DNA of 64,000 bases from Acutalibacteraceae bacterium (GCA_963610315.1 CAVDMV010000005.1:22659-86658), one strand, 5' to 3'; positions 2,374 through 27,638 are shown, counted from the stretch's first letter. Numbers and translations: made by a program. Notes: a model not told the origin generated them from the letters alone.

Positions 2374-2907
2374 ATGAAAATAGGTAAGAAGATTAAAGAG
2401 CTTAGAACCTTATATAACTTGACCCAAGAGGAACTCGCGGATCGTACTGATTTAACTAAAGGTTATATCTCTCAACTTGAGAATGATTTAACTGAACCAA
2501 GCATTTCAACTTTAGTTGATATAGTTAATGCGCTTGGAACTAATTTAAGTGATTTCTTTTCTGAACAATCAAGTGATCAAATCGTATTTTCAACTAATGA
2601 TTATATTGAAAAAGATTATGATGGTTATAAAATTACTTGGTTAGTTAATAACGCACAAAAGAATGAGATGGAACCAATTTTAGTTTCGATTTATCCGCAT
2701 AGTGAAACTGAAAAAGATTATCCTCATGAAGGACAAGAATTCGGCTATGTTTTAGAAGGAGAAATACTTCTTTGCATCGATAGTAAAAAAATCAAAGTAA
2801 AAAAAGGGGAGACTTTCTACTTTGATAGTTCAAAGAATCATTATCTTAAAAATGTTAAAGATAAAATCGCAAAAGTTATTTGGGTTTCAAGCCCACCAAA
2901 CTTTTAA
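2374..2907 (+). CDS. XRE-family HTH transcriptional regulator with C-terminal cupin domain (PuuR-like architecture)
   Basis: N-terminal HTH: IGKKIKELRTLYNLTQEELADRTDLTKGYISQLEN. The C-terminal ~100 aa beta-rich region with G..H..E.GYVLEGE looks like a cupin. It lies immediately upstream of potABCD. Confidence 0.7.
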   Translation: MKIGKKIKELRTLYNLTQEELADRTDLTKGYISQLENDLTEPSISTLVDIVNALGTNLSDFFSEQSSDQIVFSTNDYIEKDYDGYKITWLVNNAQKNEMEPILVSIYPHSETEKDYPHEGQEFGYVLEGEILLCIDSKKIKVKKGETFYFDSSKNHYLKNVKDKIAKVIWVSSPPNF

Positions 2908-2931
2908 ATGTAATTAATAAGGAGAAGCAAA

Positions 2932-4449: not shown

Positions 4450-5227
4450 GAGAAAATATTTATCAATTCCATATTTTTTATTCTTAGTTCTCTTCGTTGT
4501 CGTTCCTGTTTTATTTATCGTTTATTATGCTTTCACTAATAAAGGTGGATCATTCTCTTTCGATAATTTAACTAAGTTCTTCTCTGATTCTTCTAATATC
4601 AATGTCTTATTAATTTCTTTATCATTCGCGATTATTAATACCGTTATTTGTTTAATTATTGGTTATCCTCTCGCGATGATTCTTGCGAATAAAAAATACA
4701 ATAAATCCGCGGTTATCGTTATGATGTTTATTATGCCTATGTGGATTAATTTCGTCATTAGAACATCCGCGACTAGAGATGTTTTAAACTGGATTGGTAT
4801 TTCTACTGGTTCACAATCAACATTAACAACTATTATTGGTTTAGTTTACAACTACTTACCATTTACAATTTTACCTTTATATACAACGATGTTAAAAATG
4901 GATCGTTCCCAAATTGAAGCAAGTAAAGATTTAGGCGCAAACTCATTTCAAACATTCTTTAAGGTAATTATCCCAATGACAATGCCAGGAATTGTTTCCG
5001 CGGCAACCATGGTCTTTATGCCTACTTTATCAAGTTACGTCATCTCAGATATTCTTTCTGAATATAACGTTGTTTTATTTGGTAGTTATATCGACTTATA
5101 TTTCAATCAAGCTGATTGGAACTTTGGATCATTTATGGCTTTAATCATGCTCTTATTAATTGGTTTAAGTGTCTTTATCCAAAGAAAATTCTCAAAAGAT
5201 GAAGGAGGTAGAAGATCTATATGGTAG
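4439..5227 (+). CDS. potB: Polyamine ABC transporter permease PotB
   Basis: Six predicted TM segments. The ABC permease EAA-like loop is EASKDLGANSFQTFFKVIIP. The start overlaps the potA stop. Confidence 0.8.
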   Translation: MKFKRKYLSIPYFLFLVLFVVVPVLFIVYYAFTNKGGSFSFDNLTKFFSDSSNINVLLISLSFAIINTVICLIIGYPLAMILANKKYNKSAVIVMMFIMPMWINFVIRTSATRDVLNWIGISTGSQSTLTTIIGLVYNYLPFTILPLYTTMLKMDRSQIEASKDLGANSFQTFFKVIIPMTMPGIVSAATMVFMPTLSSYVISDILSEYNVVLFGSYIDLYFNQADWNFGSFMALIMLLLIGLSVFIQRKFSKDEGGRRSIW

Positions 5228-6111
5228 AAAATGTTTCTAATAAAAAATCTAATCCATTTACTAAAATTAAAAATTTCTTCATCGATCCAAAAACTCATAA
5301 AGTATCAAAAGAGAATGTCACTAAAGTACTCGCGAAATTCTATATGTACTTTATCTTATTATTAATGTATGCACCTATTATCATCTTAATGATTTTCTCA
5401 TTTACTGAATCAAATGAATTAGGTTGGACTGGTTTTAGCTTTGGTTTATATGTTAAATTATTTCAAAATACAAAACTCATGACCGCGGTAGGAAATACTT
5501 TCTTAATTGCCGTAGTTTCGGCCGTTGTTTCAACTATCTTAGGTACATTAGGTGCGATTGGTACTTTCTACGCATCAAGAAAATATAAAAAGACCGTTGA
5601 AACAATGACTCAACTTCCTGTTGTTAACGCAGAAATTGTTATGGCGTTATCTCTTGCAGTTGTCTTTAAAACTATTAATACAAGCTATACATTCTTTACT
5701 TTATTAATTGGTCATGTCGTTTTAACTGTTGCATTTGTTTATTTAAATGTTAAACCTAAACTCGCTCAAATGGATCCAAATACATATGAAGCAGCTTTAG
5801 ATTTAGGTGCAACTCCAATGCAAGGTTTATTTAAAGTAATTCTTCCAGAAATTATTCCTGGTATTTTATCTGGTTTCTTAATTTCTATTACATTATCTTT
5901 AGATGACTTTGTCATTACTCAATATTTAAAAGAACCTTCTTTTGAAACTATTTCAACATATATTCAAAAGATTGTCGCAAAACACCCAATTCCAGCTGAA
6001 GTAAGAGCTTTAACTACTCTCATTTTCTTAGTAGTTCTTGCTTTTGTTATTGGTATTACTATTTATAATAATAAAAAAGCGAATAAAATCGCTTCAAGTA
6101 GGAGGAAGTAA
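5221..6111 (+). CDS. potC: Polyamine ABC transporter permease PotC
   Basis: Multi-TM protein with EAA loop EAALDLGATPMQGLFKVILPE. The start overlaps the potB stop, and a 40-aa N-terminal extension precedes the first TM. Confidence 0.8.
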   Translation: MVENVSNKKSNPFTKIKNFFIDPKTHKVSKENVTKVLAKFYMYFILLLMYAPIIILMIFSFTESNELGWTGFSFGLYVKLFQNTKLMTAVGNTFLIAVVSAVVSTILGTLGAIGTFYASRKYKKTVETMTQLPVVNAEIVMALSLAVVFKTINTSYTFFTLLIGHVVLTVAFVYLNVKPKLAQMDPNTYEAALDLGATPMQGLFKVILPEIIPGILSGFLISITLSLDDFVITQYLKEPSFETISTYIQKIVAKHPIPAEVRALTTLIFLVVLAFVIGITIYNNKKANKIASSRRK

Positions 6112-7925
6112 TGATGAATAAGAATTTATTAATCGCTAGTTCATTAATTTTATTATTATCATCAAGTGTTGCGATAAATTCTCGTAATGTATCTCCAGTT
6201 AAAGGTGAAGAACTAGTTAGTGATGAATTTAAAGGTCAAACTTTAACTATCTATAACTGTGAAGATTATATTTCTCAAGGTGAAGATGATTCTCGTGATT
6301 TAATTGGTGAATTTGAAGAGATGTATGGAGTTAAAGTTAATTATTATACATATGATACTAATGAAACAATGTATAACCAATTCACTTTACAAAAAGAAGG
6401 AACATACGATTTAATTTGTACTTCTGAATATATGCTTCAAAAAATGGTGAAGAATAACTTACTTGAACCATTAGTTAATAAAGAACAAAATATTCCTAAT
6501 TATTATTCTTATGTTTCACCAACATTACAAGAAAAGCTTGAAAACATGTCTGTTACTCTTAACGGTAAACAAACTAATTTAAGTGATTATGCAGTTGGTT
6601 ACATGTGGGGTACATTAGGTATTATCTATGATCCAAGCGTCAATGACGGAAAAATTCAAGATGATGTAATGAGTTGGGATATCTTATGGAATAGTGATTA
6701 TAAAGATTTAATTTCGATTAAGAATTCAATGAGAGATACTTTCGTTGTTGGCTTAATGCATTATTATTCTCAAGATGAAAACTTTAAGAAAGTAATGGAT
6801 GCTTATTTATCTTCGCCTAGCGAAGAAACTTATGAAGCTTATAATGCTTTAGTTCAAGATACATTTGATTTTAAATTAGATGGAAGCGCGACAAGTGATC
6901 AAGAAAACAAAGAAAAAATTGAAAATGTTAAAAATGAATTAATTTCTTTAAAAGATAATATCTTTGGCTTTGAAGTTGATTCAGGTAAAAATGATATTAT
7001 CACTGGTAAAATTAAATTAAATACAGCTTGGAGTGGTGACGCCGTATATTCAATGCAAACTGCTTTAGAAGAATATGGAAAAGTCTTAGAATATAAAGTT
7101 CCTAATGATGGAGGTAACATCTGGTATGATGGATGGGTTACTCCTAAAGGAGCGAATAAAGAACTCGCTTATAAGTTCTTAGATTTCTTATCTGATCCTT
7201 CTTCTGCCGCGGATAATATGGATTATATCGGTTATACACCATTTGTAGTTGGTGATGATATTTATAATTTAGCCGCGTCTAATTATGGGGTAGGTTCATA
7301 TGATCCTTATATTACTTACTATTATTATCCAGAAGAAGAATATGGCGATTACGTCTATTATGATAATAAGTTATATATGTGTATTAAAGATACAGAAGAA
7401 GGTATCTTACCAACTAATGAAGAATATTTTGAACTTGAAGAATATGATGAAGAATATGCTTATTCTGAAGGTGATATCGTTTCATTAAATGGTAAATTCT
7501 ATAACTGCTTAGAAGATGAACAATTAAATACTTTAGTAGTCGATAGTGAAGGTAATTCTTTAGTCGATAGTTGGGAAGAAAATGTTGGTTATGATTTAAG
7601 CCATTTATTTGAAGGCTCATTTGAAGACGAAAATAGAGAAGCAATCATCTATCCTTTCTTAGGTAGCGAAAACCAACTTGAAACACAATATCCAAGCGAA
7701 GAAATTATCGCTCGTTGCGCGATTATGAATGACTTTGGTGATTATAACGATGCAGTTATTATTATGTGGGGACAAGTTAAAGCTTATACTGATATGACTC
7801 CTATTTATATATTCTTATCTATCGTTGCTTTAATAGGTATTGGAGGAATTTCTTATTCGATCATTAAAAGAAATTTATCCGCGCATTATAAACGTAACGC
7901 GATGAAAAAAGAACAAGCTAAATAA
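6111..7925 (+). CDS. potD: PotD-like polyamine-binding protein, unusually large (604 aa), with N-terminal signal, acidic Tyr-rich insertion and C-terminal TM anchor
   Basis: Signal-like N-terminus MMNKNLLIASSLILLLSSSVAI, then SBP family-1-like sequence (TIYNCEDYI..., LNTAWSGDAVY). An insertion at ~7300-7620 carries two YxxGDxVxxNGKxYxC motifs. The C-terminal hydrophobic helix IYIFLSIVALIGIGGISYSII is followed by KRN. Translationally coupled to potC. Confidence 0.7.
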   Translation: MMNKNLLIASSLILLLSSSVAINSRNVSPVKGEELVSDEFKGQTLTIYNCEDYISQGEDDSRDLIGEFEEMYGVKVNYYTYDTNETMYNQFTLQKEGTYDLICTSEYMLQKMVKNNLLEPLVNKEQNIPNYYSYVSPTLQEKLENMSVTLNGKQTNLSDYAVGYMWGTLGIIYDPSVNDGKIQDDVMSWDILWNSDYKDLISIKNSMRDTFVVGLMHYYSQDENFKKVMDAYLSSPSEETYEAYNALVQDTFDFKLDGSATSDQENKEKIENVKNELISLKDNIFGFEVDSGKNDIITGKIKLNTAWSGDAVYSMQTALEEYGKVLEYKVPNDGGNIWYDGWVTPKGANKELAYKFLDFLSDPSSAADNMDYIGYTPFVVGDDIYNLAASNYGVGSYDPYITYYYYPEEEYGDYVYYDNKLYMCIKDTEEGILPTNEEYFELEEYDEEYAYSEGDIVSLNGKFYNCLEDEQLNTLVVDSEGNSLVDSWEENVGYDLSHLFEGSFEDENREAIIYPFLGSENQLETQYPSEEIIARCAIMNDFGDYNDAVIIMWGQVKAYTDMTPIYIFLSIVALIGIGGISYSIIKRNLSAHYKRNAMKKEQAK

Positions 7926-14873: not shown

Positions 14874-14947
14874 GCCCCCTTAGTTAAATGGTATAACAGA
14901 TCCATGGTAAGGATCCGTCGCTAGTTCGATTCTGGCAGGGGGCACCA
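14874..14947 (+). tRNA. tRNA-Thr (anticodon GGT), CCA encoded
   Basis: Hand-folded cloverleaf. Acceptor GCCCCCT/AGGGGGC; D-stem GTTA/TAAC; anticodon stem GATCC/GGATC with loop ATGGTAA; T-arm GCTAG-TTCGATT-CTGGC; 3' ACCA. Confidence 0.8.
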
Positions 14948-16679: not shown

Positions 16680-18047
16680 ATGAATAACAAAAAAATTAAT
16701 ATTCTCTTGAGCTTATTAACATTAGTTAGTATTTGCTCATGCGGAAAAACAACTTCAAATAAATATTTTAGTTTAAAAATCTGGACTTATTATAACGGTA
16801 ATACAGAAGCAAGTTTCCAAGATCTCATTAATAATTTTAATGAAACTCGTGGTAAAGAACTTAAAATTGCAGTTTCAAGTCAATCACAAGGTAAAAATGT
16901 TAATGATTTACTTAACGCTCTTACGGATTCCGCGAGTGAAAAACTTGGTTCTGATCCAATGCCAGATATATTTTTAGCCTACCCTGATACAGCATATGAA
17001 TTAGATAAATTAGGTAAAATTGCTTCTTTAAATGATTATTTTTCTACTGAAGAATTTTCTAATTATAATGAAGAATTCTTAAATGAAGGTAAGTTACCTA
17101 ATAGTAATGAATATAAAATTCTTCCAATGTCCAAATCGACTGAAGCTTTATATATTAATAAAACTGATTTAGATAAATTTAATAAAAATTATCCTAATTA
17201 TGCGATAAGTTATGAAGAATTAAGGACTTATGAAGGCATTATTAATGCCTCAAAAAAATATTATGAACAAACCGGTAAAGCTTTCTTTGGACGTGATTCA
17301 CTTGATAATTATTTTGTGGTAGGTGCTAAACAATTAGGTATTGATATCTTAAGATATGATGAAAATAATAATTATGGCATTAACTACGATAAAGAAGTTT
17401 TTAAAAAATTATGGGAATGTTATTACGTTCCATATGTAAAAGGATATTTTTATTCTGAAAGTTCTTTTAGAAGCGGTGATATTAAATCAGGTAATATCAT
17501 TGCTTATGTAGGATCAACTTCTTCTGGAGGCTATTTTCCTTCAAATGTCGTTATTTCAGATAGTGAATCTTATGATATTGAATGTGAGGTTATTAAAGCT
17601 CCAATATTTGATGGCGGCGCGGATGTCGCGATAAGCCAAGGAGCTGGATTTTGCATTACTAAATCGAATAAAGAACAAGAATCTGCCGCGGCTAGTTTCT
17701 TAAAATGGTTATCAGAAAAAGATAATATTAGATCTTTTTCAAATGAAACTGGTTATTTTCCAGCGACTAATGATGGCTTTAGTTATGAATTTATTGCTTC
17801 TCAAAGCGATTCTAAATTTAAACAAAGCTTTACAGTGGCCAAAAATGTTATAAATAATTCTACAATGTATACTAATATTGTTGGTGAAGGTGGAACTTCT
17901 TTACGTAATAAATTAAAGACGAGTTTAGATACTATTTCTAAAGAAGCTCGCGCGAATGTAATAAAATCTTCTTCACAAGAAGAAGCGATAGAAGAATATA
18001 CTTCAGAAACAAAATTTGAAGAATGGTTCAACAGTTTAAATAAATAG
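16680..18047 (+). CDS. Extracellular solute-binding lipoprotein (ABC SBP family-1-like), orphan: no permease or ATPase adjacent
   Basis: Lipoprotein signal MNNKKINILLSLLTLVSICSCG with lipobox VSICSC. The mature part (IWTYYNGNTE..., YPDTAYELDKLGKI) resembles sugar-binding SBPs. Confidence 0.65.
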   Translation: MNNKKINILLSLLTLVSICSCGKTTSNKYFSLKIWTYYNGNTEASFQDLINNFNETRGKELKIAVSSQSQGKNVNDLLNALTDSASEKLGSDPMPDIFLAYPDTAYELDKLGKIASLNDYFSTEEFSNYNEEFLNEGKLPNSNEYKILPMSKSTEALYINKTDLDKFNKNYPNYAISYEELRTYEGIINASKKYYEQTGKAFFGRDSLDNYFVVGAKQLGIDILRYDENNNYGINYDKEVFKKLWECYYVPYVKGYFYSESSFRSGDIKSGNIIAYVGSTSSGGYFPSNVVISDSESYDIECEVIKAPIFDGGADVAISQGAGFCITKSNKEQESAAASFLKWLSEKDNIRSFSNETGYFPATNDGFSYEFIASQSDSKFKQSFTVAKNVINNSTMYTNIVGEGGTSLRNKLKTSLDTISKEARANVIKSSSQEEAIEEYTSETKFEEWFNSLNK

Positions 18048-18056
18048 GTAAGTATT

Positions 18057-20960
18057 ATGTTTTCACGTTTAAAAAAATATCGTAAAAGTATTAACGCTAG
18101 AATAATTACTCCAATTATCCTAGTAACATTAGTTCAAAGTATTGTTGTTATAAGCGTACTTTATTTTAGCGTGATTAAAAATACTATCGATGTTTCCTTA
18201 ATCTCTTCATTTAAAAACGGCGTTACTGTAAGAAAGAATTATTTAGAAACATTAATTACTTCATCTTGGACTAATTTAGAATCATTTAGTTCATCTTTAA
18301 ATTCTAAGACTAATACTTATTTAGAAGAAAAAAATAAAACAGTTGATGATATTATTTCTAATTCAGATGATGCAAAAGATTATTTATATTACACATGTAA
18401 TTTAATTCCTGAACTCATTCAAAATAACCATGTTAATGATGCTTATTTTATTTTAAATAATAATTTTGAAAATGATGATAATAATCTCTTAACATATATT
18501 AGAACAACTAAACCTGGTCGAGTAATTAATAATGAAATTGAAGTTCTTTACGCACCATATGATGTATGGAGATATTATTCAACAGAGGGCTATGTAATTG
18601 ATAAAAATATCGATTCAAATGACTATAGTTCAATAAGTAATTATGAATTTGTTGATAATGCGATTAAATATATTTCTCCTTCTAATGAAAATTCTTCAAT
18701 ACATGGATATTGGTCATCTTTAACTAGAGTCGCGCATAATAAGGTATTAACTTATTCTATTCCTTTCTATTTTAATGATAAATGTTTAGGAGTATTTGGT
18801 ATTGGTATTACAGAAACTTATTTAAGAGATTCTTTATCTAAATTAAATACGGAGGAAGAAGATATTAACTTTGCTTTTATTAAAAAAGTAAATAATAATT
18901 ATCAAGATGGTTTTAAAGCTTATGTCGATTATTCTTTACCTGATTTAGATGATGTAGAACTAGAAGATTCTCTTTATGAAGGTACTAAGCAATTCTATAA
19001 TAATGGAAATCAAACATTCTACTATGAAGAAAAAATTGATCTTTATAATGGAGAGAATATCGATGGAGAAACTTGGTATATAGTTGGAATGGTCGCGTCC
19101 GATTATCTTTTCAGCGTTTCTTATACGACTAGAATTGAAGTAGTATTAATATATGGTATTTCATTCTTTATTATTATTTTAATCTATATCTTAATTGCTT
19201 ATTTAATTTCTCGACCAATAGTACGCGTATCTAATTCGTTAAATGATTTAAATATTTTAAATCTACCTATGACTAATGTCTTAGAAGTCGATAATTTATT
19301 AACAAAGATTAATGATATATCGAGCCGTAATATTTCGTTAAATAATAAACTTAATCGTTTAGTTGAAGATTCTGATTATACTATTTCCTTCTTTGAATAT
19401 TCTAAAAAAGATGATAAAGTTACTATTTCTAACCAATTCTTTGATATGCTAAATATTCCTTCTTTCCAAGAAGAATTAAGTTCAAGAACTTTTATTGCTA
19501 AACTAATGTCATTAAAAAATGATATTATTTCTTCTACATATGATAGATTTGATGAAGAAATTTTAAAATCATCAGGAGAAATAGTTTTCTTTGTTAATCA
19601 TAAATATTATGTTCGACTTAAGATCGTTTCTCAAGATGAAGGGGTAATTGCTTCTTTAATTGATTTAACGCGTGAATATCAAGAAAAAGAAAGAATCGCA
19701 CATGAAAGAGACTATGATGTCTTAACTGGTTTATTAAATAGAAGAGGATTTAGAAATAAAGTTCAACCTCTTTTTGAAAGAGAAGGAACTGGTTCATTTT
19801 TCTCTCTTGATGTTGATAATTTAAAATTCCTCAATGACCAATATGGTCATGATTTAGGTGATACTTATTTAAAGAAGGTTGGCTCATATCTAACTCAAAT
19901 TGAATCTAAATTTAATAATGTGAAAACGTGTCATGTTTCTGGTGATGAATTTATTATTTATCTATATGATTATACTGACTTAAAGGAAGAAAAATTAATA
20001 ATTGAAGAACTAGAAAAAATTAAGAATGAATACATCGATATATTCAATAAGAAAGTTTATATTTCTTTAAGTGTCGGTGTTTGCCGTAGAGAAAAAGGAA
20101 TTTCTTATGAAGAAGTTCGTAAAAGAGCGGATTATACTTTATATTCGGCTAAAAATGATGGTAAAAATAAGATTAATATATTTAATGAAGAAATATTATC
20201 AATGTATAAGAATGAAAGCGTTATGTATGATGATTTAAATAAACTCATACTTAATGAATCAGTCGATTTTGCTTATCAACCAATTGTCGATATTAATAGT
20301 GGGGAAGTCTTAGGTTACGAAGCTTTAATGAGACCTACTTTAGAAGGACTTAATCCAACTAATGTCTTAAATGCCGCGAAAAAGTATTATCGATTATATG
20401 ATATTGAAAGAATTACTTTATTTAATGCGACACAAAAATTTATTGATAGTAAATGCGATAAAGTATTATTTATTAATTCAATTTCTTCTCAAGTTCTTTC
20501 GGATCCCGATTTAGAGGAATATAAGAAAAGATTTAAAGCTCACTTTAATCATATTATCATTGAATTAATTGAAGAAGATTTTGGACAAAATAATGTTGTT
20601 AAAAAGAAGATTGCTTACATTAATGATAATGGCTTAAGATACGCGATAGATGATTATGGAACTGGATATAATAACATTGGTATGATCTTATCTTTTAATC
20701 CAACTTTAGTAAAAATAGAAGGTTCTTTAATTAGAAATATTGATAAAGATCAAAATAAAGAACGTTTAGCTAAATCAATTATCTCTTATTGTAGAGTCAA
20801 TAATATTAAGGTTGTGGCTGAATCAGTAGAAACGATTGAAGAACTTAAATTAGTTAAAACCTTAGGAGTAGATTACGTCCAAGGATATTTCTTAGGTCGA
20901 CCAAATTTAGAAATAAAAGATATTCCATTAGATAAGAAAGAAATCTTAAAAAATTTATAA
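18057..20960 (+). CDS. Membrane sensor with Cache-like periplasmic domain, degenerate GGDEF (SGDEF) and EAL domains (c-di-GMP phosphodiesterase-type)
   Basis: TM1 IITPIILVTLVQSIVVISVLYF, a ~330-aa extracytoplasmic region, then TM2 VVLIYGISFFIIILIYILIAYLI. GGDEF-domain start DVLTGLLNRRGF, with the motif reading HVSGDEFIIY. EAL motifs QPIVD, EALMRP, DDYGTGY, KIEGSLI and QGYFLGRP. Confidence 0.8.
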   Translation: MFSRLKKYRKSINARIITPIILVTLVQSIVVISVLYFSVIKNTIDVSLISSFKNGVTVRKNYLETLITSSWTNLESFSSSLNSKTNTYLEEKNKTVDDIISNSDDAKDYLYYTCNLIPELIQNNHVNDAYFILNNNFENDDNNLLTYIRTTKPGRVINNEIEVLYAPYDVWRYYSTEGYVIDKNIDSNDYSSISNYEFVDNAIKYISPSNENSSIHGYWSSLTRVAHNKVLTYSIPFYFNDKCLGVFGIGITETYLRDSLSKLNTEEEDINFAFIKKVNNNYQDGFKAYVDYSLPDLDDVELEDSLYEGTKQFYNNGNQTFYYEEKIDLYNGENIDGETWYIVGMVASDYLFSVSYTTRIEVVLIYGISFFIIILIYILIAYLISRPIVRVSNSLNDLNILNLPMTNVLEVDNLLTKINDISSRNISLNNKLNRLVEDSDYTISFFEYSKKDDKVTISNQFFDMLNIPSFQEELSSRTFIAKLMSLKNDIISSTYDRFDEEILKSSGEIVFFVNHKYYVRLKIVSQDEGVIASLIDLTREYQEKERIAHERDYDVLTGLLNRRGFRNKVQPLFEREGTGSFFSLDVDNLKFLNDQYGHDLGDTYLKKVGSYLTQIESKFNNVKTCHVSGDEFIIYLYDYTDLKEEKLIIEELEKIKNEYIDIFNKKVYISLSVGVCRREKGISYEEVRKRADYTLYSAKNDGKNKINIFNEEILSMYKNESVMYDDLNKLILNESVDFAYQPIVDINSGEVLGYEALMRPTLEGLNPTNVLNAAKKYYRLYDIERITLFNATQKFIDSKCDKVLFINSISSQVLSDPDLEEYKKRFKAHFNHIIIELIEEDFGQNNVVKKKIAYINDNGLRYAIDDYGTGYNNIGMILSFNPTLVKIEGSLIRNIDKDQNKERLAKSIISYCRVNNIKVVAESVETIEELKLVKTLGVDYVQGYFLGRPNLEIKDIPLDKKEILKNL

Positions 20961-20965
20961 TTACT

Positions 20966-20992
20966 AACTGCCTGAAAATGGCAGCTTTTTAA
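20966..20992 (+). terminator. Terminator
   Basis: Hairpin CTGCCTGAAAATGGCAG followed by TTTTT. Confidence 0.7.
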
Positions 20993-21085
20993 TTGATAAA
21001 AAAATATTAAAAACATGTATACAAGCTATTGAAAGCGGTTACAAATTGTTGTAAGATATTAATCGTGAAAGGAAAAACAAAACAT

Positions 21086-23146
21086 ATGAAAAAAAATTTA
21101 AAAGTTTTATGTGGTTTAGCTTTACTTGGAAGTGTAGTAGGTACAACAGTTGGCTGTGGTCCTCGTGAAAATCCATCTTCTTCCTCTAGTAGTAGCGAAT
21201 CTACATCATCACAAGATAGTTCTTCTACTTCTTCAAGTTCTTCAAGTTCATCTAGTTCTTCTGAAGTTAAGAAAATGTTAGAAAAATTAATTGTTGATGC
21301 AAGTTATGCAAAAACCAAATTTAATAAAGGAGAAGATTTCTCAACCGACGGCTTAGAATTAAGAGTCGGATATTCAGATGAATCTGATGGCATTATCTAT
21401 TATGAAAAACTACCTTTAACTAGCGAAGGAGTAAGCATTGATTCATCATCTTATAATAAAGATGCAGTCGGAACATACACCATTTCAGTTTCTTATACTT
21501 ATGATAAAGCAATTAGATATGGTGAATACGTTGTTGAAGTTGTTGATGAATATGACGGCCAATTAGGTATTGATGTCGCAATCGATAGCGCTGACGCAAC
21601 ATTAGCTTTAACTAGCGAAAATAAAACTGCAGATTTAACTTCCTTAGCTTCAAAATTAACTGTTAAAGAAGTTCTCGCAGATGGGACTTTATCTAGTGCG
21701 TTAGAACAAGATAAATACGAAGTTTCTTATTATTCAGGTAATACTAAATTAGATGATGCAACTGCAGTTAGTACAGCAGGTGTTTATCAAATCTGGGTAA
21801 AAACAACATTAACTAGAGATAGTAAGACATTTGACGTTTCTAATTTCGTCTTTGTTTATGTTACAAATGAATTAGTAAGCATTACTTTAAAATCTGATGT
21901 AGGTACATTTACTCAAGAATCAGGTAAAGATGTTATTTCTTCAACATGGGAATTTGTTGCTCATTACGCGAATGAAGAAACTAAAGAATTAACTGCTGAA
22001 GATGTAACAATTGATATTGATACTAAGACTGCAGGAACTGATAAGATAGCAACAGTTACTTATGAAGAAACTGATCCATTAGGAGTGAAAGCTTCTAAGA
22101 GTGTTGGAGTTCCTTATACAATTACTGCAAGTAAAGAAGTAACTACAACTTATGTATATAGATTTAATCCTGCAACTATTACTGAAACTTCAAAATTCAC
22201 AAAAGATATTGATTTAGTAACAGTTGATAAAGAAGGCGTCGCTACTGATACAGTGATGAAATATATTCCAGGATCAAGTGGTAGCCAAATGAAAGATAAG
22301 GCTAAAACATTCACTTTAACTGATGAAACTTCAGTTACTACTTCTAAGGTTTTACAAACTGGTGGAGCATCTAGTGGCTTAACTAGTAGAGTTATAAAAC
22401 TTGATTTACTAGGCGCAAGTGTTATTGATTTATATTTCAGTAGCACTGGTTCAGGAAAAACAGTTGCTGCTTCCTTATTAGATAATACAGGAACAGCAAT
22501 TACAACAACTGATAAAGCTGCTGATGGAGTTACAAAAACTACATTTGAAGTAGATAGTGCAGGTACTTATTATATTTCATTCGATAGTAGCGCAAATATC
22601 TATTATATTGATGTAACTACAACTGTTTCTAATAAACAAGCTAGAACTCCTGAATCATATAATATTACTGAATATACACCTGCTTTCACTGCAGGTGCAG
22701 CGGTTAATAATGTTACATTTGGTGAATTTATTACTTTTGTTGGAGCGGTAGCTAAAGACAAAGATGCTTCTCCTTATAGTAAAGCATGGCAACTAGCTAA
22801 TAAATTAAGCGAAAGTAATAATGTTACTTTAGATTTCTCTACTCTTGATGAAGGAGAAAATGCTACAGTAAAAGTTAAGTTCGCTAGTGGATCTAGTACT
22901 TTAGATGCACGAGCTTTAGGTTTCTTTAAAGCTAATGTATTAAGTGATGCAAACTTAATAACTGCAGTTACAGTTGCTGAAACAACAACTACAAAAGCTG
23001 ATAAAAATATAATGACTTTAGAATATACATTTACTAAAGGAACATATTATATTGGTAGCTTTATTTATAACGCAGATGGTACAACTATTAATACTGGTTC
23101 AAACAAAGGTATTAATATCTTTGCTATTAGCGTTGATTATGAATAG
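21086..23146 (+). CDS. Ser-rich surface lipoprotein with repeated Ig-like / beta-sandwich domains
   Basis: The start is the ATG at 21086 after RBS GAAAGGA. Lipobox LALLGSVVGTTVGCG, followed by a ~45-residue poly-Ser/Thr linker (21170-21290), then ~600 aa of T/V/S-rich beta-strand repeats. Confidence 0.6.
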   Translation: MKKNLKVLCGLALLGSVVGTTVGCGPRENPSSSSSSSESTSSQDSSSTSSSSSSSSSSSEVKKMLEKLIVDASYAKTKFNKGEDFSTDGLELRVGYSDESDGIIYYEKLPLTSEGVSIDSSSYNKDAVGTYTISVSYTYDKAIRYGEYVVEVVDEYDGQLGIDVAIDSADATLALTSENKTADLTSLASKLTVKEVLADGTLSSALEQDKYEVSYYSGNTKLDDATAVSTAGVYQIWVKTTLTRDSKTFDVSNFVFVYVTNELVSITLKSDVGTFTQESGKDVISSTWEFVAHYANEETKELTAEDVTIDIDTKTAGTDKIATVTYEETDPLGVKASKSVGVPYTITASKEVTTTYVYRFNPATITETSKFTKDIDLVTVDKEGVATDTVMKYIPGSSGSQMKDKAKTFTLTDETSVTTSKVLQTGGASSGLTSRVIKLDLLGASVIDLYFSSTGSGKTVAASLLDNTGTAITTTDKAADGVTKTTFEVDSAGTYYISFDSSANIYYIDVTTTVSNKQARTPESYNITEYTPAFTAGAAVNNVTFGEFITFVGAVAKDKDASPYSKAWQLANKLSESNNVTLDFSTLDEGENATVKVKFASGSSTLDARALGFFKANVLSDANLITAVTVAETTTTKADKNIMTLEYTFTKGTYYIGSFIYNADGTTINTGSNKGINIFAISVDYE

Positions 23147-23163
23147 AAAGGGATGATAGATTT

Positions 23164-26100
23164 ATGAAGAAAAAATTATTTTTACAAGGTTCAATTTTAT
23201 TATTATCTGCATTAACTATTACTTCTTTCTCTACAGGTAATACTCCTAAAGTAACGGCAGAAAATAAAACTCCAATTACAACAAATTCTAATAAAGTAAA
23301 TGATAATGTTTCAACTACTTATTATGTTTCTCCTACTGGTAGTAAAACTGGTGATGGAACTGAAGCGAATCCATATGATGTTGTTACATTATTAACATCC
23401 GCGGATATTTTAAAACCAGGTGATACTGTTATTCTTAAACAAGGTACATATTCATTAGGTGATGAAGATAGAATTAAGATTATTTCATCAGGTTCATTTG
23501 AAAAAGTTTTAACTATTAAAGGTGAAGGAGAAGTTAAACTTGATTTCTCTAAGATGAGATTTGATTCTAATAACCGCGGCGTAACTATTGCAGGTGATCA
23601 TATCCTTTGGACAAATATTGATATCTGTGGTGCTGGTGATAACGGTATGTATATCTCTGGTAATTACAATATTGTCTCAGATTGTGAATTCTATAATAAC
23701 CGTGACTCAGGTTTACAATTAGGTCGTGATAATTCAGAACAATCAAATATTGAAGATTGGCCAAGCTACAACCTCATCCAAAACTGTACATCATATAATA
23801 ACTATGATAATGAAACATTTGGTGAAAACGCTGATGGTTTCGCGGCTAAATTAACTGTTGGTTATGGTAACGTATTCGATGGATGTATCGCTTATAGAAA
23901 CTCTGATGATGGTTGGGATTTATATGCAAAAACTGATTCAGGTGATATTGGTTGTATTACTTTATATAACTGCGTATCTTTCGAAAATGGTTATTTATTA
24001 AATACAAAAGCAGAAAATAATGCTAGATTTGAAAAATATAATTCCGCATATGATGAAACTGAAACTAATTCATACATGACTAGAGATGGTGATGGTATTG
24101 GATTTAAATTAGGTGGATCTACTATGAGAGGCGACGTTAAGATGTTTAACTGTCTTTCATTCAACAATAGATTACATGGTGTTGGTGATAACTCTAACCC
24201 AGGTGTCTTATCAGTTGAAAATGTTACTTCTTATAATAACGCAGCAATTATTGATGATGATTCAACAAGTGCAAACTTTGGTAATATTATTCTTGGTACA
24301 TTAGATGGTGATTCTAAATCATCAAATATTGATATGGCTAGAACAGAAAATAGCTATAATAACTATAAAAATATCTTATCAGTTAAAAATGGTGGTTCTT
24401 CTTTAGCGGGAGATGCTTATAGAGGTTCAGCTGAATATTGTATCTTTGATGATGCGGCAGGAAATGCTTATAAAGTAGATTCTTATACTGATGCATCAAG
24501 TTATGTAACTTCAAAGAAAGGTACTAAAGAAACTTCAGTAGTCGCAAGTGATGTATTTGAAGCTTTACCTATTACTTGGACAACTGATGAAAGTGGAGCG
24601 ACTACTTATTCTTATTCTTTAACTGGTAAAAACAATACGACAGTCCATCAAACTTATCGTAATGAAGATGGCTCTATTAATATGGGCAACTTATTAAAGA
24701 TTAAAGACCAAACTAAATTATTTGGTAATGAACATAAGATTGGTGCTTCATTAAGTGAAACTAGCTACGTAGAATATACTCATCCATATGAAGAAATCGC
24801 TAACGCAACTAGTGATAAAGATTTCTTATTAATGGCTGCTAGAAACGCTTTATATTTAAATACTGATGAAGAAGCAGTCTATCAAGACTTTAACCTTATT
24901 ACTAAGATTTTAGGATGTAACGTCGCTTGGAGTTCTTCTGATACATCAGTCATTAAGATTGGTGCTTCATATAACGATTCTCGTTCATCTTCTGAATTTG
25001 TTAGAGCGATTGTTTATAGACCTAATGAAGATAAAGATGTTACATTAACTGCAACACTTGTCTATTATGGACAAACTATTACTCAATCATTTACTGTTAA
25101 AGTAAAGGCGGCTGCTCCAGAACTTGGCGAAATGAATGTTCTTGGCTTAGAAAAATCACGTATTATCGTTGATCAATACCAAGCTTATACTTTACCAGAA
25201 GTTCAAATTGAAGATGGCTCTGACTATAATGGTAAATTATTACCAAGTAGTTCATATTCTTTAAAAACTAAAGTTGAATATGCTTCTGATAAGAACGCAA
25301 CTTATCATGAAATCGCTCAATTTACGACTTCAAAAGCTGGTGTTTATAAGATTACAAAAACAGCAACATTAGGTGAAACATCATCTTCATTAACATTCTA
25401 TGTTTATGTTGCTAGTAAAGATGCAAATGTTGATTTTGAAAAAGATGGAACAGGTGCAAGTACTGCTTCAGTAATTGTTAATAAAACTGGTTATCGAATT
25501 GAAGGTAACTTAACTAATGTTACTGGTTCAATCTATGCATTATCTTCAAAAGACGCGATTAGTGATATTACTGCTGACTACGTTAAAGAACATGGTCAAG
25601 GTTACACATTTAGAGATGACTCAGTTGCTTGTTCATTTGAAAATAATAATAATGAAGGTTATCACATCTATTACGTATTAACTAACGCAAATGGTAAAGT
25701 TACTAGTGCAGTTTATGAAAAAGAAATTTCAACTGTTTCTATTTCAACTGCAGAAGAATTTAAAGCATTCGCGGCAAGTAACGAATCAACTAAGATTTAT
25801 ACTTTAGAAGCAGATATTGACTTATCTTCAACTACTTGGACAGGTAATGATTACACATTAAAAGGCTTATTAAATGGTAAAGGTCATACTGTTAAGAACG
25901 CAAATGTTGCTTCAGCAAGTAATGGTGCTTCCTTATTTAACAAAGCTTCTGGTGGTACTTTAGAAAATGTTAGATTTGAAAACTTAACATTTACTAATGC
26001 TTCAGGAAAACAAAGAGCAGGTATTATCGCTCAAGCTGAAAGAGGCGATTTCTATAACATTCAATTAAGAAATGTTGTTGCAACTGGAGGATCAGGTAGA

Positions 26101-26772
26101 AATGGTGCTTTAATCGCTCAAATCGTTGAAAAGAATGGTTCTGAAGTTAATATTGATCAAGTTTCATTAATTAACGATGCAGATAAAGTTATCGGTGGTA
26201 CTGCAGATGTCGGCGGTATTGTTGGTATGATTCAAGCTACATCAGGCTCATACGGAACAACTAGAATCTCTAATATTTATATTGATGCTACAATTTCAGC
26301 AGGTGGATCTAACTATGCAGGTTCTGTTGTTGGTAGATATGGTGAAAGAGAAAACGAAGTTCTAGAAATTAACCATGTATATTCAAAAGCAACCGTTAAA
26401 GGTAATACTTATGTTGGAGGTATTATCGGAGCTCACCAAAATTCTGCAGGTACAATGGATGTAAGATATTGTGCATTTACAGGTGAATTATATTATGGTT
26501 CTAACTTAGAAAAAGTTGTTTCTGCTCAAAAGAATTGTTCAAATATCGTTGGTAGATATTCAGGTGTTACAACATTATCAAAAGTTATTTGTTGTTATGC
26601 TCCATTTGAAGAAGCTAACTCAAATTATGATGTTAATGTCTATGATGTCGCTGATTTACAAAATGAATACTTCTATTCTCATAACATTGAATTAGATGTT
26701 AAAGATAGATGGACATTTGATGAAGCTACAAAAACTATTTCATTAAATTTCATTGATACTTGGTCTAAGTAA
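23164..26772 (+). CDS. Large secreted right-handed beta-helix protein (DUF1565 / pectate-lyase-fold) with C-terminal GLUG-motif repeats; putative polysaccharide lyase or adhesin
   Basis: Signal peptide MKKKLFLQGSILLLSALTITSFS. N-terminal YYVSPTGSKTGDGTEANPYDVVTLL...PGDTVILKQGTY is typical of pectate-lyase-like beta-helix proteins, followed by repeated N.xGxxI.G...N coils. The C-terminal region has GLUG-like repeats (KGLLNGKGHTVKN, VGGIVGMI, AGSVVGRY, VGGIIGAH). Confidence 0.6.
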   Translation: MKKKLFLQGSILLLSALTITSFSTGNTPKVTAENKTPITTNSNKVNDNVSTTYYVSPTGSKTGDGTEANPYDVVTLLTSADILKPGDTVILKQGTYSLGDEDRIKIISSGSFEKVLTIKGEGEVKLDFSKMRFDSNNRGVTIAGDHILWTNIDICGAGDNGMYISGNYNIVSDCEFYNNRDSGLQLGRDNSEQSNIEDWPSYNLIQNCTSYNNYDNETFGENADGFAAKLTVGYGNVFDGCIAYRNSDDGWDLYAKTDSGDIGCITLYNCVSFENGYLLNTKAENNARFEKYNSAYDETETNSYMTRDGDGIGFKLGGSTMRGDVKMFNCLSFNNRLHGVGDNSNPGVLSVENVTSYNNAAIIDDDSTSANFGNIILGTLDGDSKSSNIDMARTENSYNNYKNILSVKNGGSSLAGDAYRGSAEYCIFDDAAGNAYKVDSYTDASSYVTSKKGTKETSVVASDVFEALPITWTTDESGATTYSYSLTGKNNTTVHQTYRNEDGSINMGNLLKIKDQTKLFGNEHKIGASLSETSYVEYTHPYEEIANATSDKDFLLMAARNALYLNTDEEAVYQDFNLITKILGCNVAWSSSDTSVIKIGASYNDSRSSSEFVRAIVYRPNEDKDVTLTATLVYYGQTITQSFTVKVKAAAPELGEMNVLGLEKSRIIVDQYQAYTLPEVQIEDGSDYNGKLLPSSSYSLKTKVEYASDKNATYHEIAQFTTSKAGVYKITKTATLGETSSSLTFYVYVASKDANVDFEKDGTGASTASVIVNKTGYRIEGNLTNVTGSIYALSSKDAISDITADYVKEHGQGYTFRDDSVACSFENNNNEGYHIYYVLTNANGKVTSAVYEKEISTVSISTAEEFKAFAASNESTKIYTLEADIDLSSTTWTGNDYTLKGLLNGKGHTVKNANVASASNGASLFNKASGGTLENVRFENLTFTNASGKQRAGIIAQAERGDFYNIQLRNVVATGGSGRNGALIAQIVEKNGSEVNIDQVSLINDADKVIGGTADVGGIVGMIQATSGSYGTTRISNIYIDATISAGGSNYAGSVVGRYGERENEVLEINHVYSKATVKGNTYVGGIIGAHQNSAGTMDVRYCAFTGELYYGSNLEKVVSAQKNCSNIVGRYSGVTTLSKVICCYAPFEEANSNYDVNVYDVADLQNEYFYSHNIELDVKDRWTFDEATKTISLNFIDTWSK

Positions 26773-26775
26773 GAT

Positions 26776-26806
26776 ATTAAGGCTATCGAAAGGTAGCCTT
26801 TTTAAG
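26776..26806 (+). terminator. Terminator
   Basis: Hairpin AAGGCTATCGAAAGGTAGCCTT followed by TTT. Confidence 0.65.
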
Positions 26807-26876: not shown

Positions 26877-27638
26877 ATGAAAAAAAGAAAATTACCTGAA
26901 TACATGTTTACTAAGAAACAAGCCGCTATTTATAGTTGCTCAATGTTACTTTATCTTGGCTTTGTTCCTTTCTTAGTTTTAACAATTTTGACTAAGCAAT
27001 CAATTTATTCAATTATAGCTATTTGTTATATTGTTTTAGCTTTAATAGTCATTTTAATTATTAATACGCTTACTAATCCTTTACATAAAATGGAAAAAGA
27101 AAGAAATATAACTGGTGATGTAAAGAAATTTATTTTAGATGTAGAATCTTTAAAGAGTGATTTAGTAAAAGAAGAAACAATTAATTATTTAAATATTCTC
27201 TTAGTTAATGCCTATTTTAATGTTGATTTAAAAAAAGGTTTAGAGATGTTCCCATCATTAAAGAAACCAACAGTTAAGAAATTTGCTTATTATTATCAAC
27301 TTGTTGAAGTATGCTACCATATTAATAAAGATGAATTTGATAAAGCTAATGAATTAATTAATGTTTATAGAGATATTAATCCATATATTAAGAAATTAAA
27401 TAAAGATATTATTAAAATATATTCTACAAAAGAATATGTTATCGATAATATTGAAATGATGTTTCCTATTAATACTAAGAAAGTATTTTTAAATGTTAAT
27501 AATGCTGAAATATTATTAACTTATTATTCTTTAAGAGAGAATGAAAAAAAGGCTAAAGAATATGCTTCTTTTATTTTAAATAGTAATACTACAATGGAGG
27601 AATGTAATATTCACGCAAGAAAGGTATTAGGTGAATAA
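26877..27638 (+). CDS. Membrane protein, 2 TM plus alpha-helical cytoplasmic domain, unknown function
   Basis: Two hydrophobic helices (LLYLGFVPFLVLTIL and IIAICYIVLALIVILII), then a K/E/N-rich helical domain. Its stop abuts the start of the following HD gene. Confidence 0.4.
   Translation: MKKRKLPEYMFTKKQAAIYSCSMLLYLGFVPFLVLTILTKQSIYSIIAICYIVLALIVILIINTLTNPLHKMEKERNITGDVKKFILDVESLKSDLVKEETINYLNILLVNAYFNVDLKKGLEMFPSLKKPTVKKFAYYYQLVEVCYHINKDEFDKANELINVYRDINPYIKKLNKDIIKIYSTKEYVIDNIEMMFPINTKKVFLNVNNAEILLTYYSLRENEKKAKEYASFILNSNTTMEECNIHARKVLGE

Follow-up and report, generated by a model that had tools for sequence, protein, structure and literature searches.

A conserved lipoprotein-lyase gene pair of uncultured gut bacteria as a probable surface module for pectin capture and cleavage

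Two large adjacent genes in the genome of an Acutalibacteraceae bacterium raise the question of what their secreted products do at the cell surface. A sequence-only reading of the window (the whole stretch of 64,000 nucleotides that was analysed) had placed both open reading frames at positions 21086-26772, with the second one encoding 1202 aa, and these coordinates proved exact. It had also proposed a surface module for either polysaccharide degradation or host adhesion; the former is borne out by intact residues of a family PL9 polysaccharide lyase, while no evidence was found for the latter. Our analysis makes it probable that the pair constitutes a two-gene surface module, in which the product of the first gene (A) would capture pectin and that of the second (B) would cut it. 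The value of this proposal lies in the annotation of "hypothetical" proteins, and not in a new kind of biology.

Gene A (21086..23146) encodes a surface lipoprotein of 686 aa, the putative pectin-binding subunit, whereas gene B (23164..26772) encodes a 1202-aa secreted protein predicted to be a multidomain PL9 lyase from its ORF and its PDB, Pfam and Foldseek matches; both genes, as well as all oriented features described below, lie on the + strand. Direct searches retrieved more than 3,800 homologues of gene B and 19 close homologues of gene A, which indicates that both are real genes and not chance ORFs. The mechanical ORF of gene A opens at a TTG (21029), and the ATG at 21086 was preferred as its start because all full-length homologues begin with MKKNLKVLCG. 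An AAAGGA ribosome-binding site is found ~11 nt before this ATG, downstream of a promoter-like site (TTGAAA-17-TAAGAT, 21029..21057), which is a consensus match only and weakly supported, as promoter-like sites in this region show no enrichment over shuffles. Just 17 nt separate the stop of gene A from the start of gene B, which has its own GGGATGA-type ribosome-binding site, so that both genes are probably co-transcribed. Hairpins are present on both flanks of the pair: a terminator-like one (CTGCC-loop-GGCAG followed by CTTTTT, 20968..20984; found by scanning, with a fold of -8.1 kcal/mol and z -2.9) directly after the stop codon of an upstream GGDEF-EAL gene, marking the upstream boundary, and an intrinsic terminator with a 9-bp stem (AAGGCUAUC/GGUAGCCUU) followed by a U-run (26779..26803; -13.5 kcal/mol, z -3.8), marking the downstream one. 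The two large genes probably form a self-contained two-gene operon. Each product carries an N-terminal signal sequence and no other hydrophobic segment, in agreement with the secretion previously proposed for both proteins.

The signal sequence of the gene B protein (MKKK and a hydrophobic core, 23164..23259) would possibly be cleaved between VTA and EN. No lipobox is found in this protein in the lineage of the window; many lineages have a lyase that is a lipoprotein in its own right, so that anchoring does not everywhere depend on the partner. The pectate-lyase-fold beta-helix that had been read from the sequence is well supported: aa 50-420 (23311..24423) form a right-handed parallel beta-helix of the PL9 type, as indicated by matches to the PDB entries 1RU4 (Pel9A, E 1.3e-23) and 5OLQ (a PL9 rhamnogalacturonan lyase, E 1.2e-9), to the Pfam family Pel9A-like_beta_helix (PF22842) and, partially, to the PelX model. 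The PF22842 match escaped the scan of the entire protein and was found with the N-terminal part alone (aa 39-420; 43.6 bits versus a cut-off of 25.2). The AlphaFold model (pLDDT 89.7) gave 1RU4 (TM 0.75) and 5OLR (TM 0.68) as top Foldseek matches in the PDB, so that both sequence and structure searches point to Pel9A as the nearest solved structure of the catalytic domain. The Ca2+ ligands and the catalytic base of Pel9A have been described (PMC10992409). Alignment places Asp224 (23833..23835) at the ligand Asp209, Asp248, Asp249 and Asp252 (SDDGWD, 23905..23919) at the ligands Asp233, Asp234 and Asp237, and Lys315 (GFKLGG, 24106..24108) at the base Lys273. The four Ca2+-binding aspartates and the lysine are invariant in 66 homologues of 41-83% overall identity. 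Family profile, fold and residues therefore identify the N-terminal beta-helix, by homology, as that of a PL9 lyase whose catalytic residues are intact. Orthology with the exo-pectate disaccharide-lyase PelX was rejected on score, since the equivalog NF041903 reached 87 bits versus a cut-off of 1490 and matched through profile positions 381-591 alone; fold and family are shared.

The remainder of the gene B protein holds the Ig-like spacers previously recognized in it: an atrophied bacterial Ig domain (aBig_2, aa 561-649, 24844..25110; 29-31 bits versus a cut-off of 27) and two further Ig-like beta-sandwich spacers (aa 650-855, 25111..25728), seen from secondary structure with pLDDT ~90 and generic tandem-Ig Foldseek matches. 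These are followed by a second beta-helix (aa 856-1160, 25729..26643) of Peptidase_M26_N/GLUG type, as suggested by its profile, by the Pfam matches of relatives and by beta-solenoid strands in the model. The motifs quoted in the sequence-only reading were all located in this protein, namely PGDTVILKQGTY at aa 85-96, KGLLNGKGHTV at aa 900-910, VGGIVGMI at aa 1016-1023 and VGGIIGAH at aa 1084-1091. Its claim of C-terminal GLUG coils holds in part: the score of the protein with Pfam Glug (PF07581) is below threshold (12.6 bits versus a cut-off of 20.5, E 0.19), but a family-level M26_N/GLUG-type match and the GGIVG/GGIIG turns speak for it. The profile of the C-terminal beta-helix family matched PDB 3N6Z, a 'putative IgA1 protease', with E 3.4e-12, and the domain in 80 relatives matched Peptidase_M26_N (PF05342) in 26 cases, Pectate_lyase_5 in 9 and Glug in 4 (E <0.01), whereas the window sequence alone gave no Peptidase_M26_N match at E <0.01. 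Homology of this beta-helix with the M26_N type is thus supported by sequence comparison at the family level. The protein as an M26 IgA1-specific metalloprotease was discarded, as it contains neither an HExxH motif at any position nor a Pfam match to a peptidase domain; an LPxTG motif was likewise not found in it. As far as can be seen, the C-terminal beta-helix is non-catalytic, and it may serve in docking or binding. A small alpha/beta cap (aa 1161-1202, 26644..26769) closes the AlphaFold model, and its similarity to protein G B1 was not significant (E 0.41).

The first protein had been described as an Ig-repeat lipoprotein with a serine-rich linker, and this architecture was recovered. Its N-terminus, MKKNLKVLCGLALLGSVVGTTVG-C24, is a lipoprotein signal peptide (21086..21157) with the lipobox VGTTVG-C, whose Cys24 is kept in at least 90% of homologues, and the partner proteins of other lineages show similar A/G/S-C lipoboxes. 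A Ser/Thr-rich linker follows (aa 30-59, 21173..21262), with 26 of its 30 residues being S or T, which makes it shorter than the ~45 residues first estimated; it is predicted to be disordered, and aa 1-60 have a pLDDT <50 in the AlphaFold model. The repeated beta-sandwich modules are seen in the same model as three Ig-like modules (aa 60-350, 21263..22135), which would form a stalk and are the best-conserved portion of the protein. The window lipoprotein has no Pfam match to Big_3 (PF07523), but two homologues that align to its aa 55-514 do (L046 with 64 bits and L041 with 42 bits).

Beyond this stalk, gene A encodes two putative carbohydrate-binding modules. C1 (aa 352-516, 22139..22633) is a homologue of a carbohydrate-binding domain whose structure has been solved from PL9 pectate lyases (PDB 8WC1, 8X8H). 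Profile A2 matched 8WC1 over aa 389-516 (E 4.1e-8), and the module profile A4 retrieved two entries over the full length, with E 2.8e-29 for 8WC1 ('Pectate lyase family 9') and E 9.8e-27 for 8X8H ('Pectate disaccharide-lyase'); together with Foldseek TM values of 0.88 and 0.76 and a module HMM E of 1.7e-32, the gene A module is seen to belong to this domain type by full-length sequence and fold similarity. C2 (aa 550-686, 22733..23143) is a divergent second copy of the C1-type module (module HMM E 3.8e-8), a beta-sandwich with pLDDT ~90. Since this is the module type of PL9, PL1 and CE8 pectin enzymes, C1 and C2 most likely bind homogalacturonan. The support for pectic binding is by association: 5 of the 12 other carriers scanned combine the module in one protein with a PL9-like or unassigned right-handed beta-helix (2), a pectinesterase (2) or a PL1 pectate lyase (1). 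A literature search by PDB code found no papers describing 8WC1 or 8X8H, its single result being an unrelated article on methods of structure prediction. A strain-variable tract (22086..22900, no strand assigned) covers C1 and the start of C2; compared with the conspecific strain L081, DNA identity drops there from 92-98% to 60-67% (80% at the 3′ edge), and protein identities by region support this tract. The first binding module is swapped between conspecific strains.

The pairing itself is widely conserved. In 71 of 80 related loci, from Clostridia and Bacilli-type metagenome-assembled genomes of 27-53% GC, the lyase is directly preceded by a same-strand lipoprotein homologue, whose end and the PL9 start are offset by a median of -16 nt; in 6 of the 9 other loci, a contig end cuts the locus. 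The lipoprotein-lyase pair is a cassette conserved across classes, present in hundreds of uncultured gut bacteria, with the lipoprotein as the obligate genomic companion of the lyase. The homologues derive essentially from metagenome-assembled genomes of the gut and rumen. GH28 genes occur nearby in 19 of the 80 loci and GH88/105-type genes in 13, and the nearest catalytic-domain relatives in cultured bacteria, in Clostridium butyricum (44% identity) and Butyrivibrio, are fused to or adjoin pectinesterases. What is new here is this conserved cassette, the homology of its binding module to 8WC1/8X8H, the GH28 and GH88/GH105-type neighbours and the exchange of C1 between strains.

The most probable functioning of the pair would start with the anchoring of the gene A lipoprotein in the membrane through its N-terminal lipid-modified cysteine, from which the flexible Ser/Thr linker and the three Ig-like modules would hold the two carbohydrate-binding modules off the cell. 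The C-terminal modules would then, most likely, bind homogalacturonan, and the secreted PL9 lyase would cleave alpha-1,4-galacturonosyl linkages by Ca2+-assisted beta-elimination, with Asp224, 248, 249 and 252 holding Ca2+ and Lys315 abstracting the C5 proton. The products, 4,5-unsaturated oligogalacturonides, would be taken up. The Ig-like spacers and the M26_N/GLUG-type beta-helix may dock on either the lipoprotein or the substrate and so retain the enzyme at the surface; the first case would imply a physical contact between both proteins. The substrate is likely dietary pectin and not a surface polysaccharide of the cell itself, presumably homogalacturonan as opposed to the rhamnogalacturonan-I backbone.

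Family PL9 also holds enzymes that cleave rhamnogalacturonan or a bacterial sheath polysaccharide, and a substrate range that includes non-pectin polymers means that sequence alone does not settle the substrate. From this general CAZy knowledge it could be argued that the lyase cleaves a uronic-acid polymer of non-plant origin, such as an exopolysaccharide or capsule of the cell or its neighbours or a host glycan, and that the cassette serves to remodel or disperse biofilms, possibly with c-di-GMP control via the GGDEF-EAL protein. In this species and in one close relative, the cassette directly follows a pair of genes for an SBP and a GGDEF-EAL protein; no other pectin genes (GH28, GH105, CE8, KduI/D) were found in the 64-kb window, where the neighbours are housekeeping genes. 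We regard this alternative as unlikely, because the binding module of the partner is of the type carried by PL9, PL1 and CE8 pectin enzymes, GH28 and GH88/105-type genes neighbour the cassette in other lineages, and Pel9A is the solved structure nearest to the catalytic domain. As for c-di-GMP, adjacency to a GGDEF-EAL gene is limited to the conspecific strain and one close relative among the 80 related loci, and the terminator-like hairpin at 20968-20984, together with the promoter-like site, separates that gene from gene A; the regulatory link suggested in the sequence-only reading is consequently not supported, and the conserved linkage to the GGDEF-EAL gene that a c-di-GMP-controlled surface operon would show was not seen in these loci.

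It is still more doubtful that the pair works mainly as an adhesin system, in which the lyase fold would be a binding scaffold instead of an enzyme, and the Ig-like repeats and the M26_N/GLUG-type beta-helix would fix the cell to host mucus, IgA or plant particles. Such a role would fit the Pectate_lyase_5 matches ('putative pectate lyase-like adhesive domain') in 9 of 80 relatives, the IgA1-protease N-terminal region matched by 26 of 80, the S-layer and cadherin-like Ig arrays retrieved by Foldseek, and a strain-variable surface tip typical of host- or phage-exposed adhesins. However, the invariance of the five catalytic and Ca2+-binding residues among homologues as distant as 41% identity argues for retained catalysis, the HExxH peptidase and LPxTG motifs are lacking, and the variable module is itself a carbohydrate-binding one akin to those of pectin enzymes. 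Finally, the contrast between 19 close lipoprotein homologues and more than 3,800 lyases in direct searches might suggest unrelated neighbours, an ordinary secreted pectate lyase beside a lineage-specific lipoprotein; this explanation is hardly tenable, as it is contradicted by remote lipoprotein homologues that precede the lyase in the same way in 71 of 80 loci from different classes and by the match of the lipoprotein module to 8WC1/8X8H, the type fused to PL9 enzymes elsewhere. Pectin capture and cleavage thus stays as the preferred reading.

Among known systems, gene B is close to Pel9A of Dickeya dadantii (Erwinia chrysanthemi), with which it shares the beta-helix fold, the Asp ligands and the Lys base, at 21% identity over the Foldseek alignment with 1RU4, and a Ca2+-assisted beta-elimination would be expected for both. 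However, Pel9A is a single-domain enzyme of ~400 residues, whereas the 1202-aa gene B protein adds three or four Ig-like modules, a second, M26_N/GLUG-type beta-helix, an additional loop (aa 276-308) ahead of the catalytic Lys and an obligate lipoprotein partner encoded alongside. BT4170 of Bacteroides thetaiotaomicron (5OLQ/5OLR), a lyase of the rhamnogalacturonan-I backbone, is, like the gene B product, a gut-bacterial PL9 beta-helix enzyme, but a weaker match than Pel9A, and it belongs to a SusC/D-type polysaccharide utilisation locus of a Gram-negative bacterium, while no SusC/D genes are found among the window genes scanned. The region aa 856-1160, with its GGIVG/GGIIG GLUG-like turns, is homologous at the profile level to the N-terminal region of M26 IgA1 metalloproteases and to 3N6Z of Bacteroides ovatus; unlike those proteases, gene B has no M26 peptidase domain or HExxH, and its own sequence falls below Pfam thresholds.

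The closest cultured relative of the catalytic domain that was found, a beta-helix protein from a Clostridium butyricum megaplasmid (WP_064062227.1, 43.7% identity over aa 36-359), adjoins a pectinesterase and shares the catalytic domain alone, with no 8WC1-type module, M26_N-type domain or partner lipoprotein. The gene A protein resembles the surface glycan-binding lipoproteins (SGBPs) of Bacteroides polysaccharide utilisation loci (PULs), such as BoSGBP-B (6E57, Foldseek E ~1e-5), in its N-terminal lipid anchor, Ig-like stalk, distal glycan-binding domain and location beside the cognate enzyme, but the sequences are unrelated, a SusC/D transporter is lacking, and the bacteria concerned are monoderm or wall-less, of Bacillota type. 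This resemblance is a functional analogy and not a membership; a Bacteroidota-type PUL was rejected, as no SusC or SusD was detected in the scanned genes of the window or in the neighbour clusters that recur at related loci. A further parallel for the lipoprotein is found in the PL9 pectate lyase and pectate disaccharide-lyase with the 8WC1/8X8H domain, to which its C-terminal modules are homologous over the full domain length: there, one polypeptide unites the PL9 enzyme with the binding domain, whereas here the latter is carried by a separate lipoprotein encoded just upstream of the lyase.

The stretch 21086-26772, in which the sequence-only reading had placed two giant secreted proteins, corresponds exactly to two consecutive plus-strand open reading frames in a window of about 28% G+C, and this pair probably constitutes a surface module for the capture and cleavage of pectin. 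The start of the first one, gene A (21086-23146, 686 aa), was read as the ATG at 21086 instead of the mechanical TTG at 21029, because an AAAGGA ribosome-binding site lies 5′ of this ATG and all full-length homologues begin with MKKNLKVLCG. The gene A stop is followed after 17 nt by gene B (23164-26772, 1202 aa), which has its own ribosome-binding site. A terminator-like hairpin (20968-20984) separates gene A from an upstream GGDEF-EAL gene, and a stronger hairpin with a U-run (26779-26803; -13.5 kcal/mol, z -3.8) lies 3′ of gene B, so that the pair looks like a transcription unit of its own. No regulatory RNA was detected at the operon by Rfam, whose only matches at the gathering threshold across the window were two tRNA genes (14874-14944 and 58301-58373).

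Some other features of the window can be mentioned here. Directly past the operon terminator, an ORF of 253 aa without any Pfam match (26877-27638) is shared by the conspecific strains and by the closest genome record, L001 (CAVJWU010000009.1), which has a lyase 92% identical to gene B and the same downstream genes. This record is titled 'Azospirillum sp. CAG:239', yet it shows 27.9% G+C and Bacillota-type genes, and its taxonomic label looks wrong. A 98-aa antisense ORF inside gene A (22150-22446, minus strand) is probably not a gene; antisense ORFs cluster across loci only because they overlap conserved genes. Finally, an HTH-cupin regulator in the region 2374-7925 precedes the genes of an ABC transporter, which comprises a TOBE-domain ATPase, two permeases and a solute-binding protein of 604 aa that matches CBM_5_12 at a borderline level.

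Pfam and NCBIfam scans of the whole proteins encoded by genes A and B gave almost no matches. The Pel9A-like_beta_helix model of Pfam, which the whole-protein scan of gene B did not pick up, reached 43.6 bits (cut-off 25.2) when the N-terminal part was scanned alone. This region (aa 50-360) matched Pel9A, the pectate lyase of polysaccharide lyase family 9 (PL9) from Dickeya dadantii (PDB 1RU4, E 1.3e-23), as well as a Bacteroides PL9 rhamnogalacturonan lyase (5OLQ, E 1.2e-9), and the AlphaFold model of gene B, built on 66 homologues (mean pLDDT 89.7), found 1RU4 (TM 0.75) and 5OLR (TM 0.68) as its best Foldseek matches in the PDB. In the HMMER alignment, Asp224, Asp248, Asp249, Asp252 and Lys315 correspond to Pel9A chain positions 184, 208, 209, 212 and 248, which, with the 25-residue precursor offset added, are Asp209, Asp233, Asp234, Asp237 and Lys273 of Pel9A. 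According to a published review (PMC10992409), Ca2+ is bound by Asp209, Asp233 and Asp237, and Lys273 acts as catalytic base. None of the five residues varies among the 66 homologues, whose overall identity is only 41-83%. With its catalytic residues intact, gene B is a PL9 lyase whose catalytic domain adds a new member to this family; pectin is its presumed substrate. The NCBIfam PelX equivalog was also hit, but only in part (87 bits against a cut-off of 1490), so gene B is not a PelX orthologue.

The N-terminus of gene A is a lipoprotein signal peptide (...VGTTVG-C24). The Ser/Thr linker proposed for this protein is indeed present, with Ser or Thr at 26 of its 30 positions, which makes it shorter than the ~45 residues first estimated. 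Gene A has no Pfam match, no direct PDB match and only 19 close homologues. Its AlphaFold model (pLDDT 78.6, about 90 in the C-terminal half) shows three Ig-like sandwiches (Ig1-3) followed by two larger beta-sandwiches (C1 and C2), for which Foldseek returned 8X8H and 8WC1 (TM 0.88 and 0.76), described as 'a carbohydrate binding domain of a putative pectate lyase', and further CBM22 and CBM51 modules and a Bacteroides SGBP. A profile of the close homologues matched 8WC1 ('Pectate lyase family 9') over aa 389-516 (E 4.1e-8), and a module profile from 35 partner lipoproteins matched 8WC1 (E 2.8e-29) and 8X8H ('Pectate disaccharide-lyase', E 9.8e-27) in full length. The module HMM found two copies in gene A, C1 at aa 352-516 (E 1.7e-32) and C2 at aa 550-686 (E 3.8e-8). 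An exhaustive phmmer search with C1 over 1.84 billion representatives yielded 26 matches, and a word-indexed search with the binding-module profile only three fragments. Among 12 carriers of C1-type modules with other architectures, scanned with Pfam, two end in a right-handed beta-helix (one with a Pel9A-like score just under the cut-off, 23.6 against 25.2 bits, the other with the generic Beta_helix model only), two contain a pectinesterase domain and one a PL1 pectate lyase domain, fusions which indicate that the module travels with pectin enzymes. Gene A is thus predicted, from profiles and models alike, to be a carbohydrate-binding lipoprotein.

The pairing of both genes extends well beyond this genome. 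The gene B family comprises more than 3,800 proteins of 1,200-1,300 aa, nearly all unnamed, 'hypothetical' or labelled 'beta-helix repeat protein', and relatives occur in at least 494 species-level genomes. The best 80 relatives are all uncultured, and their source, where a record title reveals it, is gut, faeces or rumen; their labels read Clostridia, Coproplasma, Borkfalkiaceae, Anaeroplasma(taceae), Acholeplasmatales, Mollicutes or Bacilli, and the G+C content of their loci spans 27-53%. Neighbour clustering placed a lipoprotein homologue immediately upstream and on the same strand in 71 of these 80 loci, the median distance from partner end to lyase start being -16 nt (IQR -21 to -12), and in six of the remaining nine the contig ends less than 300 nt from the lyase start. 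The partners almost all have a lipobox, as judged by eye, and end in one, two or three binding modules, the conserved core being Ig1-3 plus C1. The lyase N-terminus varies: many lineages have a lipobox there, and others show a signal anchor or a plain signal peptide. Both proteins are thus destined for the cell surface, but the partner does not serve as the anchor everywhere. Across the 80 loci, no further gene accompanies the cassette in all cases. A GH28 gene lies nearby in 19 of them and a GH88/105-type hydrolase in 13; these enzymes act on pectin or on lyase products.

Several peculiarities were seen among these loci. Many Clostridia-type partner lipoproteins (L003-L009, L028, L029, L034, L042, L048, L050 and L056) and the N-termini of two lyases (L010 and L059) contain, just past the lipobox, repeated His/Cys motifs (H-x-Y-…-W-…-HWH-x-x-TC-x-H) that may form a metal-binding mini-domain and that the window protein lacks. 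The lyases of L028, L029 and L047 have an extra N-terminal Big_2-like module. Locus L065 (9875-13426) has a split lyase gene in which a separate ORF of 104 aa encodes the N-terminus with its lipobox, which suggests a frameshift or an assembly error.

The closest cultured relatives of the catalytic domain are found on Clostridium butyricum megaplasmids (44% identity) and in Butyrivibrio, with pectinesterases fused or adjacent to them. Unlike the gene A/gene B pair, the C. butyricum relative has neither binding module nor C-terminal domain. Phage and plasmid collections contain relatives of the catalytic domain only, none covering 80% or more of the gene B protein. A PL9-like catalytic domain with 35% identity to aa 51-361 is encoded by two 'Listeria phage' records that lack annotation (OR847321.1 and OR848143.1); it could belong to a phage depolymerase, or the records could be bacterial contigs binned by mistake.

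Gene B has an N-terminal signal sequence and lacks a lipobox, an LPxTG motif or any further hydrophobic segment. Its catalytic domain is followed by a beta-sandwich/helical region, an aBig_2 domain (aa 561-649), two Ig-like modules and, in the AlphaFold model, another beta-solenoid spanning aa 856-1160 that bears a small cap. The GLUG-type coils attributed to this C-terminus proved right as to the kind of domain: a profile from the 80 relatives matched 3N6Z, a 'putative immunoglobulin A1 protease' (E 3.4e-12), and individual relatives matched Peptidase_M26_N (26 of 80), Pectate_lyase_5 (9 of 80) or Glug (4 of 80). Strict GLUG membership was rejected, as gene B itself scores 12.6 bits against the Pfam cut-off of 20.5. 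An IgA-protease function was discarded given the absence of HExxH, and no peptidase domain accompanies the C-terminal beta-helix. This domain is poorly conserved, its mean column identity being 24% and the conserved positions mostly Gly and Asn, so nothing points to a second active site; presumably it helps to hold the enzyme at the surface by docking on the lipoprotein or the substrate.

With regard to the proposed c-di-GMP control of this surface module, the upstream gene encodes a membrane protein of 967 aa that contains SGDEF and EAL motifs and weakly matches a PDC sensor, and 9 nt before it lies a gene for an SBP_bac_8 solute-binding lipoprotein of 455 aa; together (16680-20960) they look like a ligand-sensing c-di-GMP pair. 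Co-transcription or conserved linkage with the cassette was discarded given the intervening hairpin and the rarity of the adjacency, shared only by L081, a strain of the same species, and by the close relative L002, in both of which the pair itself is conserved. For the same two reasons the proposed regulation is not supported, and nothing observed here points to control in trans.

Strain comparison revealed a further trait of the lipoprotein. In close homologues with an Ig region 95-96% identical to that of gene A, C1 is only 38-64% identical, and in one case C2 is only 25% identical; within that population, each region of gene B keeps 96-97% identity. C1 falls into at least five allele classes among the close homologues. 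Strain L081 shows identical synteny, from LuxS to the ABC transporter, and 92-98% DNA identity over 14 kb except for a sharp-edged tract at about 22086-22900 (60-67%), confined to the first binding module. Such an abrupt drop indicates replacement of the module by recombination, not gradual divergence.

The architecture described here, a PL9 domain with Ig spacers and an M26_N-type beta-helix whose binding module is split onto an obligate lipoprotein partner, was not found in literature searches on 8WC1/8X8H or on PL9 in Christensenellales or Anaeroplasma. The domain identities, the catalytic residues, the gene pairing and the association with pectin enzymes are shown by the data; which exact substrate is cut, whether the two proteins touch and what the C-terminal beta-helix does are matters of inference. 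The cassette leaves the view of pectin degradation unchanged. It occurs in uncultured gut and rumen lineages with small genomes and poorly known nutrition, such as Coproplasma, Borkfalkiaceae, Anaeroplasmataceae and Acholeplasmatales, about whose diet it offers a testable statement; the solved but unpublished binding domain 8WC1/8X8H gains both a partner and a probable ligand class, and the swapped alleles provide a natural series for strain-level glycan specificity. A more speculative reading, which we consider rather unlikely, is that in these monoderm or wall-less gut bacteria both proteins would form a non-covalent surface complex, the conserved Ig stalk of the lipoprotein docking the M26_N/GLUG beta-helix of the lyase, while strains swap the distal module cassette and keep the enzyme constant. 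Module swapping would then retune the pectic structure captured, or evade phage or IgA, and such a complex would be the functional equivalent of the SGBP-plus-enzyme assemblies of Bacteroides.
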